Shown here: one piece after another, positions 14,664 through 15,372 of the stretch | How the letters are laid out: every line of letters begins with the position of its first letter | Position numbering within the stretch: the first letter of the stretch is position 1 | DNA from: Escherichia phage Pu-Krd-SF3 | Length of the DNA: 64,000 nucleotides | Sequence record: PQ249397 | Reading direction: 5' to 3' (one strand) | The notes under the pieces: generated by a model | Database searches by the model: none | What the model was told of the DNA's origin: nothing | The model's input: the letters and a program-made list of their open reading frames with translations, nothing else | Translations under genes and position numbers: made by a program

Positions 14664-15049
14664 ATGGAACTTATTACAGAATTATTTGACGGCGCTTCGG
14701 CGCCGGTTGTTAACTTAAATCCTAAGCATAAAATACCTCAAATTTTTGCTATTCAAGCCGGTGAAGAAAGTGTGCTTCCTGGATTTAGATTTTGTACATA
14801 CACCTCTGGCGGTGATACGAATAAAACGTTAAGCCGGGCGATAAAATGATGCATATCGTAATGATAGGTGTTAATGAGAAACTATCATTAGTTAAGCTTA
14901 AAAACTTGGGTGGAAATCCAATTGGTGTCATTAATGCTGTTTTTGATACTGCTCTTCAAACAATGAAACAGTATAAAATCGACGCATGCCTATTACGCGT
15001 ACTAAAAAGTTCAAAATGTAGTTTACAAGTCCCTCATGTTGTGTTATAG
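14664..15049 (+). pseudogene. Decayed partial duplicate of the alt 5' end, split by a frameshift into 61-aa and 67-aa ORFs
   Basis: 14664-14849 product aligns to Alt residues 2-62, 14846-15049 product to Alt residues about 64-128; frames differ. Confidence 0.65.
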
Positions 15050-15075
15050 TAATCTTACTGACATAACATGAGGAA
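15021..15075 (+). promoter_or_regulatory. Early-promoter/stem-loop element copy B
   Basis: GTTTAC 15021-15026, TATAGT -10; perfect 9-bp inverted repeat CCTCATGTT 15031-15039 / AACATGAGG 15065-15073 overlapping SD GAGGA. Confidence 0.6.
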
Positions 15076-15081
15076 CACAAA

Positions 15082-15372
15082 ATGAAATCTTCTTTGCGCT
15101 TTTTAGGTCAAGAACTTGTAGTTGAAGGCGTTATTCCTGCTGATAATGCTTTTAATGAAGCAGTTTATGATGAATTTATCAAAATTTTTGGAACAGATAA
15201 AAAGTTCGGAATTTTTCCTTCTGAAAATTTTTCAAAGCCAGAACAGACTGAAAGTATTTTCCAAGGTGTAGTAACAGGTAAATTTGAGTCAGAAGCTCCG
15301 GTAAAAATTGAAGTTTATATTGAAGACAGTTTAGTTGCTTCAGTTGCTGCTTTTATTTCATTCCGTAAATAA
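15082..15372 (+). CDS. Hypothetical protein driven by element B
   Basis: 96 aa; ATG 8 nt after GAGGA. Confidence 0.5.
   Translation: MKSSLRFLGQELVVEGVIPADNAFNEAVYDEFIKIFGTDKKFGIFPSENFSKPEQTESIFQGVVTGKFESEAPVKIEVYIEDSLVASVAAFISFRK

Follow-up and report, generated by a model that had tools for sequence, protein, structure and literature searches.

The alt.-3 gene of Escherichia phage Pu-Krd-SF3, a Tequatrovirus of which we analysed a 64,000-nucleotide (nt) stretch (record PQ249397; hereafter the window), probably has its own immediate-early promoter, set within a leader hairpin that derives from the leader of alc and that is predicted to gate translation. Promoter and hairpin occupy a 54-nt promoter-leader element (copy B) upstream of a 96-amino-acid (aa) open reading frame (ORF); a second copy of the element (copy A) precedes alc (Table 1). 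The ORF is the T4 gene alt.-3, already catalogued, and no new gene is added here. A first-pass annotation made from the sequence had described a promoter, a hairpin, a repeat, the 96-aa ORF and a terminator at this locus, and we found all of them in place. What we consider new, a modest addition, is the reading of the alc/alt.-3 leader as a structured gate with an embedded early promoter, the gating itself being a prediction.

A promoter embedded in a leader hairpin

The copy B promoter (TTTACA, a 17-nt spacer and TATAGT, with TG before the -10 box; 10/12) is the best sigma-70-type match between positions 12300 and 15600. Copies A and B are homologous from precisely the G of GTTTACA up to GAGGA, with unrelated flanks on either side, and a match of 51/54 nt is far beyond chance for a window of 64 kb. 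Copy A begins 4 nt past the rnlA stop codon; in copy B the Shine-Dalgarno motif GAGG stands 8 nt before the alt.-3 ATG. Folded as RNA, copy B yields a hairpin with a stem of about 18-20 pairs and a predicted free energy (dG) of -23.4 kcal/mol (z score -4.5; 0 of 200 shuffled sequences fold as well), and copy A yields one with a dG of -28.6 (z -5.8). The 5' arm of the copy B stem consists of the promoter spacer and the -10 box, and in the predicted fold CCTC at 15032-15035 pairs with GAGG, all four bases of which are thereby engaged. RNA that starts after the -10 box is unstructured in both copies (copy B from 15052, z +1.2; copy A, z 0.0). A search of Rfam with positions 14900-15500 gave nothing near any gathering score.

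This arrangement resembles that of the T4 genes e, soc, 49 and I-TevI, in which long transcripts keep the ribosome-binding site sequestered and an internal promoter yields translatable RNA (Uzan and Miller 2010, PMC3014915). Common to these gates and to the alt.-3 leader are a Shine-Dalgarno sequence buried by a helix, which for alt.-3 is predicted from the fold described above, and an embedded promoter whose transcript lacks the 5' strand of that helix. In contrast, the promoters of e, soc, 49 and I-TevI are late promoters (TATAAATA) and their translation is late-only, whereas the promoter embedded in the alt.-3 element is an early sigma-70 promoter and not a late one, so that early-only translation is the predicted outcome.

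With moderate confidence, we propose the following scheme, in which (i) transcripts begun at the embedded promoter (at about 15057) would lack the 5' arm, leaving the ribosome-binding site open; (ii) read-through transcripts from upstream, carrying both arms, would be translationally silent, their source being the alt late promoter at 12581; (iii) the element would restrict the synthesis of Alt.-3, and of Alc, to the period in which early promoters are active; and (iv) the gate would be ancestral at alc and would have been copied once onto alt.-3 in the Tequatrovirus lineage. The late promoter at 12581 (TATAAATA) is the nearest one to alt.-3 on the + strand. Because a terminator scan detected no terminator-like site on the + strand between alt and 15377, late alt transcripts should run through alt.-3.

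Compensatory evolution of the alc leader

Leaders of alc and alt.-3 were gathered from annotated phages and from IMG/VR contigs; scans of IMG/VR and of metagenomes for additional copy-B variants returned few T4-like contigs, of which 5 and 6 were usable. At alc, pairing between the promoter spacer and the Shine-Dalgarno sequence occurs in 19 of the 22 distinct leader variants with an early promoter. These variants fold with dG values of -15.6 to -25.7 (z -3.4 to -6.4), transcripts from their own promoters are unstructured, and the arm sequences used differ by lineage (for example TCCTCATTTTGTT/AACAAAATGAGGA, TCTCCATTTGGTT/AACCAAATGGAGA, CCTCGTTTGTT/AACAAACGAGG and AACCTCTCATTTT/AAAATGAGAGGTT). 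When the arms were swapped between ten lineages, the mean duplex dG was -17.4 kcal/mol for cognate and -9.2 kcal/mol for non-cognate combinations; the cognate arm was the best partner in nine of the ten lineages, and the observed mean was reached in 0 of 20,000 permutations. The swap test replaced a count of pairs on a MAFFT alignment of the alc leaders, which was dropped because 3' arms from different geometry classes do not line up in register. Judged from these leaders, the alc hairpin is kept by compensatory changes across at least eight lineages.

Covariation alone is silent on what the helix does, and a long covarying stem would also be expected if the hairpin affected the fate of the RNA, as a terminator or attenuator, or as a site for RNase III or another processing activity that splits off the alt.-3 or alc mRNA. 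Two further observations fit such a role: several other early promoters of the window lie in inverted repeats that stop short of the Shine-Dalgarno sequence, and the stem-loops of PeSL elements, which are considered below, are terminators. We nevertheless regard it as unlikely. The copy B stem is followed by no U-tract (AACACAAAATG), and in the 19 of 22 alc variants the 3' arm tracks the Shine-Dalgarno sequence as it changes (GGAG, GAGG, GGGG), which a terminator or cleavage site would not need and which favours occlusion of the ribosome-binding site over a role in termination or processing.

A different kind of alc leader was seen in three IMG/VR contigs of about 170 kb (L022, L023 and L050, positions 601-1339), in which a GC-rich hairpin with GTGTACAAG in its loop is followed by a T-run and a -10-like box. 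The alc match in these contigs extends over about 739 nt versus the usual length of about 500 nt, which suggests an insertion within or beside alc.

Origin of the alt.-3 hairpin

A GTTTAC-N17-TAnnnT promoter precedes alt.-3 in every lineage examined. Unlike the alc hairpin with its wide distribution, the hairpin at alt.-3 is confined to Tequatrovirus (z -5.0 to -6.7), and this restriction makes it probable that the leader was copied from alc. Between copy B and the Tequatrovirus alc leader, 51/54 to 54/54 positions agree, and geometry and hairpin are shared; in T4T the match between the two copies is 53/54, and in one metagenomic genome (L017, L056) they are fully identical. Within a genome, the alc and alt.-3 leaders of Tequatrovirus share 86% identity versus an off-diagonal (cross-genome) mean of 69% (standard deviation 5, maximum 81), and no other lineage stands out in the identity matrix. 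A single copying event in the Tequatrovirus ancestor most likely placed an alc-type gate before alt.-3, and we infer the direction, from alc to alt.-3, from the design of the two leaders. Concerted evolution of the two leaders in other genera was also considered, as the RB69 leaders share ATCAACAACAYGAGGA, but was rejected since their identity of 73% is no outlier in the same matrix.

It is also possible, although doubtful, that the hairpin before alt.-3 has no function, and that gene conversion swapped in the alc leader, which was then kept as a strong early promoter and ribosome-binding site. The single, lineage-specific event indicated by the identity matrix would fit this explanation, as would the alt.-3 leaders outside Tequatrovirus, all of which lack occlusion of the Shine-Dalgarno sequence, and the Tequatrovirus genomes are too alike for strong tests of selection. 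However, most stem changes among the Tequatrovirus copy-B variants keep the pairing (G-U to A-U, G-C to G-U), with one C-to-A change that breaks it, and the variant GTTCCTTATG lengthens the stem, its pairing reaching into the alt.-3-specific GAGGAAC (dG from -23.0 to -25.7). Compared with T4, the 5' arm of copy B in the window has A in place of G, so that a G-U pair becomes A-U. In Kanagawavirus, moreover, the alt.-3 spacer independently pairs with the region of the start codon instead.

Several points weigh against the proposed scheme. The gating of alt.-3 and alc translation is itself predicted, and the duplex of about 20 base pairs (bp) could instead be a site for RNase III or for other processing. 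The alt.-3 leaders of other genera form a short hairpin within the spacer and leave the Shine-Dalgarno sequence open (z -2.3 to +0.4), so that a gate is not generally needed for alt.-3, and the Tequatrovirus gate could be a neutral by-product of copying. The conserved AACATGAGGA just before the start codon is also usual in the alt.-3 leaders of other genera, which leaves the direction of copying short of proof. As for the gene, T4 from which nearly the whole alt.-3 ORF was deleted is viable, with no phenotype reported, and wild-type Alt.-3 neither triggers nor inhibits the anti-phage defence CmdTAC, with no activity reported (Vassallo et al. 2024, PMC11618068 and preprint). Finally, the leader hairpin may already stand in the older T4 literature.

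On the long-shot reading of Alt.-3 as an effector against the host, given below, sharing the gate in Tequatrovirus would mark Alc and Alt.-3 as a co-timed pair in host takeover, and the alc/alt.-3 leader would be the first T4 promoter-in-hairpin gate built around an early promoter. The compensatory evolution of the alc hairpin makes early-only gating directly testable, as the counterpart of the gates at T4 lysozyme, soc, 49 and I-TevI, which confine translation to the late period. The copying would also mean that a 54-nt regulatory module moved between genes 13 kb apart while the coding sequence stayed where it was, unlike the cassette shuffling proposed for PeSLs.

Another structure was observed in the alt.-3 promoters of phages other than Tequatrovirus, where a hairpin lies wholly inside the 17-nt spacer (L002-L009 at about 3440-3500; L089 at 4428-4490 and L011 at 2515-2580, both on the - strand). 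The stems covary (CCACA/TGTGG, TCCAC/GTGGA, CATCC/GGATG and ATCAC/GTGAT, with ACACC/GGTGT at RB69 alc), and the loop is conserved and Shine-Dalgarno-like (ATGGA, AAGGA, ACGGA).

The Alt.-3 protein

The ORF product matches Pfam DUF5498 over its entire length (E value 1.4e-64; 215 bits, the cutoff being 27; residues 1-96 align with profile positions 1-96) and also PHROG 1739, labelled "unknown function"; it has no NCBIfam match and no relative in the PDB, in keeping with the first-pass annotation, which had left it without a function. It is like T4 Alt.-3 (UniProt P39493, Y12A_BPT4) in length, neighbours (alt.-2 upstream and the convergent gene 54) and terminator. The alternative stop codons behind the 117-aa and 110-aa CmdTAC-escape alleles of T4 are present as well: in the window, read-through of the alt.-3 stop codon produces exactly 117 aa with the tail KYGDRKVPIVILLLIFYFAS, and a 1-nt deletion close to the gene's 3' end produces 110 aa. 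The family is small and was found in T-even-type phages only, with 33 clusters in a word-indexed profile search. A deep sequence search of 1.84 billion representatives gave 15 clusters (50% identity), with members of about 90-110 aa and no informative relatives; over both searches the members are of about 90-120 aa. Invariant positions include E11, E15, F24, F50, G66 and E71 as well as F91, F94 and R95 at the C-terminus. An apparent paralogy with gp30.5, seen in shared N-terminal words (repeat family D5), had no support from Pfam.

Homology and structure prediction, proposed earlier as a check on this ORF, differed in their yield. Homology led to T4 alt.-3 and DUF5498, whereas the AlphaFold2 model, although confident (29-sequence alignment; predicted local distance difference test score 95.7, predicted template modelling score 0.83), has no match among solved structures. 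The model is a compact alpha/beta fold in the order strand-strand-helix-strand-helix-strand-strand. Its last strand contains the conserved C-terminal residues and lies at the end whose extension creates anti-CmdTAC activity. In the model, this pattern is compatible with a protein-binding role, without identifying the target of the wild-type protein, and we infer that Alt.-3 acts by binding a host protein.

The view that the element is an early promoter driving the ORF is borne out by T4. In a time-resolved transcriptome and proteome, alt.-3 (P39493) falls into the early class both as RNA and as protein, and its abundant product is readily detected, with mass-spectrometry intensities climbing to about 2e9; alc belongs to the same early RNA and early protein class, Alt and RnlA, encoded just upstream of copies B and A, are classed as late proteins, and the alt.-1 product was undetected (Wolfram-Schauerte et al. 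2022, PMC9697503). In T4 the gene is thus expressed early, and it has no assigned structural or housekeeping role, so that neither outcome named earlier as refuting the cassette idea applies; that idea is contradicted for other reasons, given below.

The sole functional lead comes from the C-terminally extended forms. All T4 escapers from CmdTAC lengthen Alt.-3, from 96 to 117 or 110 aa, and the extended protein keeps the antitoxin CmdA from being degraded in a ClpP-dependent manner (Vassallo et al. 2024, PMC11618068 and preprint). A single mutation separates Alt.-3 from defeating CmdTAC. As a long shot, we hypothesise that Alt.-3 is a conserved immediate-early effector directed against host Clp proteolysis or a toxin-antitoxin-chaperone network, whose native target would be another ClpP-dependent defence or host factor.

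We consider it very improbable that Alt.-3 is a dedicated partner of Alt, for instance an early-made inhibitor or modulator of the injected ADP-ribosyltransferase. Such a partnership would explain the adjacency of alt and alt.-3 in every Tevenvirinae lineage examined. However, alt.-3 has its own promoter and a temporal class unlike that of alt, and in Salmonella phage Melville, where alt is split into two ORFs (L006, 1333-3440) by a frameshift that the depositors' resequencing confirmed, alt.-3 is intact.

Stability of the alt.-3 slot

The ORF had previously been regarded as an exchangeable accessory cassette delimited by a recombinogenic repeat at the boundary of the early and late blocks, and comparison of this junction across T4-like phages contradicts the exchange. 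A tblastn search with the 96-aa product located a single copy per genome across 836 phage records, with identities as low as 34%. The neighbouring gp54 was found in 1,388 records. The order of alt and alt.-3 followed by the convergent gene 54 is kept in ten T-even lineages, down to about 25% identity. It was seen in RB69 (Mosigvirus), IME08 (Dhakavirus), Marfa (Marfavirus), Kosakonia 305 (Kanagawavirus), Melville (Gelderlandvirus), EcS1 (Kagamiyamavirus), KaAlpha (Karamvirus), Ursula, RB32 and T4T, and the lineages concerned include Tequatrovirus, one unclassified Straboviridae phage and Jiaodavirus, the last with a divergent, unannotated gene. This gene, a 92-aa ORF between alt and gene 54 of Klebsiella phage PKO111 (NC_031095.1; L089 4149-4427, - strand), is negative in tblastn, reaches an hhalign probability of 94% to the family profile, has the same kind of promoter and lacks the FRK C-terminus. 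As tblastn missed this homologue, the family counts obtained with it are underestimates.

What varies at the junction is the number and state of the alt copies: RB69 has a single one, IME08, Ursula and RB32 have two each, and T4 and the window have one together with a remnant. Over positions 14600-15450 the window shows 100% identity to Escherichia phage Pu-Krd-SF4 and, over 851 nt, 97.3% to T4, with few nucleotide differences, and 90 of 502 records cover at least 80% of this 851-nt query. On the sequences compared, alt.-3 is not a swappable cassette, and the second alt copy is what varies.

The repeat likewise does not behave as expected of a cassette boundary. The 54-nt element occurs in 997 places in 499 records, that is, twice per genome, and copies A and B are direct repeats 12.9 kb apart that bracket alc, pseT, cd, 31, rIII, 30 and alt. 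Genes 31 and 30 are essential in T4, so a crossover between the repeats would give no viable deletion. Among the 499 records there was no different gene between copy B and the terminator, and there were no circular or deleted forms bounded by the copies. The description of the ORF as delimited by the repeat holds on one side, where copy B adjoins it; the other copy lies far upstream, before alc.

The cassette explanation, in which the repeat would be a PeSL-type recombination module, draws on the fact that PeSL elements bring about exchanges of ORFs in T4-type phages, the T4/PST pair among them, on the variation of the nearby second alt copy between close relatives, and on two exceptional slots: in Krischvirus the slot has an unrelated 161-aa ORF, and in an Acinetobacter phage it is empty. 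Against the conserved synteny, the single copy per genome and the lethal crossover, we find it hardly credible. PeSLs are defined as an early promoter with a terminating stem-loop just upstream, and they occur in many copies clustered in hyperplastic regions, adjoining variable ORFs (Arbiol 2010; Comeau 2014). The alt.-3 element is like them in joining a stem-loop and a sigma-70-like early promoter (TTTACW-N17-TAYWAT for the PeSLs of the T4/PST pair) to a Shine-Dalgarno sequence and a start codon. Its stem-loop, however, covers the promoter and leader, reaching from the spacer as far as the Shine-Dalgarno sequence, where that of a PeSL is placed upstream of the promoter and terminates transcription, and the element has two copies per genome and a conserved neighbour. 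The identification as a PeSL was rejected on the position of the stem-loop, the copy number and the requirement for a variable neighbour.

The accessory character claimed for the ORF stands in part, since alt.-3 is dispensable and its mutant forms affect anti-phage defence, but it is not exchangeable. For a gene of unknown function, the slot at the early-late boundary ranks with the most stable sites in T-even phages, and this stability argues for a real, conserved role of Alt.-3.

In the Krischvirus Escherichia phage Ec_Makalu_003 (L090 4167-5473, - strand), the slot next to gene 54 also has a 274-aa ADP-ribosyltransferase ORF, whose stop codon overlaps the start of the unrelated 161-aa ORF; the two resemble a coupled gene pair.

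Layout of the locus

Table 1. Position and strand of the features discussed (window coordinates).
Feature	Position	Strand	Remarks
Copy A of the promoter-leader element	2086-2139	+	directly upstream of alc
alc (inhibits transcription of the host)	2144-2650	+	gene driven by copy A
Terminator hairpin, then T4 late promoter TATAAATA (12581-12588)	12560-12588	+	21 nt before the alt start
alt (packaged ADP-ribosyltransferase)	12609-14660	+	
alt.-1 and alt.-2, remnant of a second alt copy	14664-15049	+	first ~125 codons, internal deletion, last few codons
Copy B, 54-nt promoter-leader element	15021-15074	+	51/54 repeat of 2086-2139; -35 TTTACA 15022-15027; -10 TATAGT 15045-15050; Shine-Dalgarno GAGG 15070-15073; expected transcription start ~15057
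Leader hairpin (predicted)	15029-15076 (core 15032-15073)	+	5' arm 15029-15051; 3' arm 15056-15076
alt.-3 ORF	15082-15372	+	96 aa, 10.7 kDa, isoelectric point 4.7, Pfam DUF5498
GC-rich hairpin terminator common to alt.-3 (+) and gene 54 (-)	15377-15398	both	
Gene 54 (baseplate-tail tube initiator)	15401-16366	-	first gene of the convergent late block; 321 codons

The matching stretch of the T4T record has alt, alt.-1, alt.-2 and alt.-3, followed by gene 54 on the opposite strand. The decayed alt duplicate that had been noted upstream of copy B is real: the ORFs at 14664-14849 and 14846-15049 repeat the first approximately 125 codons of alt (repeat families D10 and D17), and the T4 annotation likewise treats alt.-1 and alt.-2 as the remnant of a second alt copy. 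In RB32, this second copy is intact and is followed by the same promoter downstream.

The terminator fills most of the 28-nt gap between the stop codons of alt.-3 and gene 54 and has a 9-bp stem with six GC pairs. The label "bidirectional", given to it earlier, is only half secure. The stem and the good T-run on the - strand (ATTTTTATTT) support it, the + strand T-run (TGTTATATTG) is weak, and as the strong T-run is found on the - strand only, the terminator should serve gene 54 better than alt.-3.

Further repeats in the window

Three other early promoters of the window (4762-4800, 8174-8215 and 63927-63965) lie in inverted repeats with the -10 box in the loop and dG values of about -18 to -20. 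These repeats pair the spacer with the region just past the start site, short of the Shine-Dalgarno sequence, and inverted-repeat early promoters look like a general feature of T-even phages.

Between 63185 and 63998 there are three to four repeats of an early promoter, its leader and the first codons (AGGAGAATAAAATGAAAAC...), which are arranged in tandem and close-set, unlike the alc/alt.-3 pair. They resemble the repeated modules of promoter and capsid-targeting sequence at the internal-protein (IP) locus of T4. A 472-aa ORF that has Ig/PKD-like domains (26180-27598) contains a 288-nt tandem duplication (26439-27014, 77% identity) and is apparently a Hoc protein with one 96-aa domain more than the 376-aa protein of T4.

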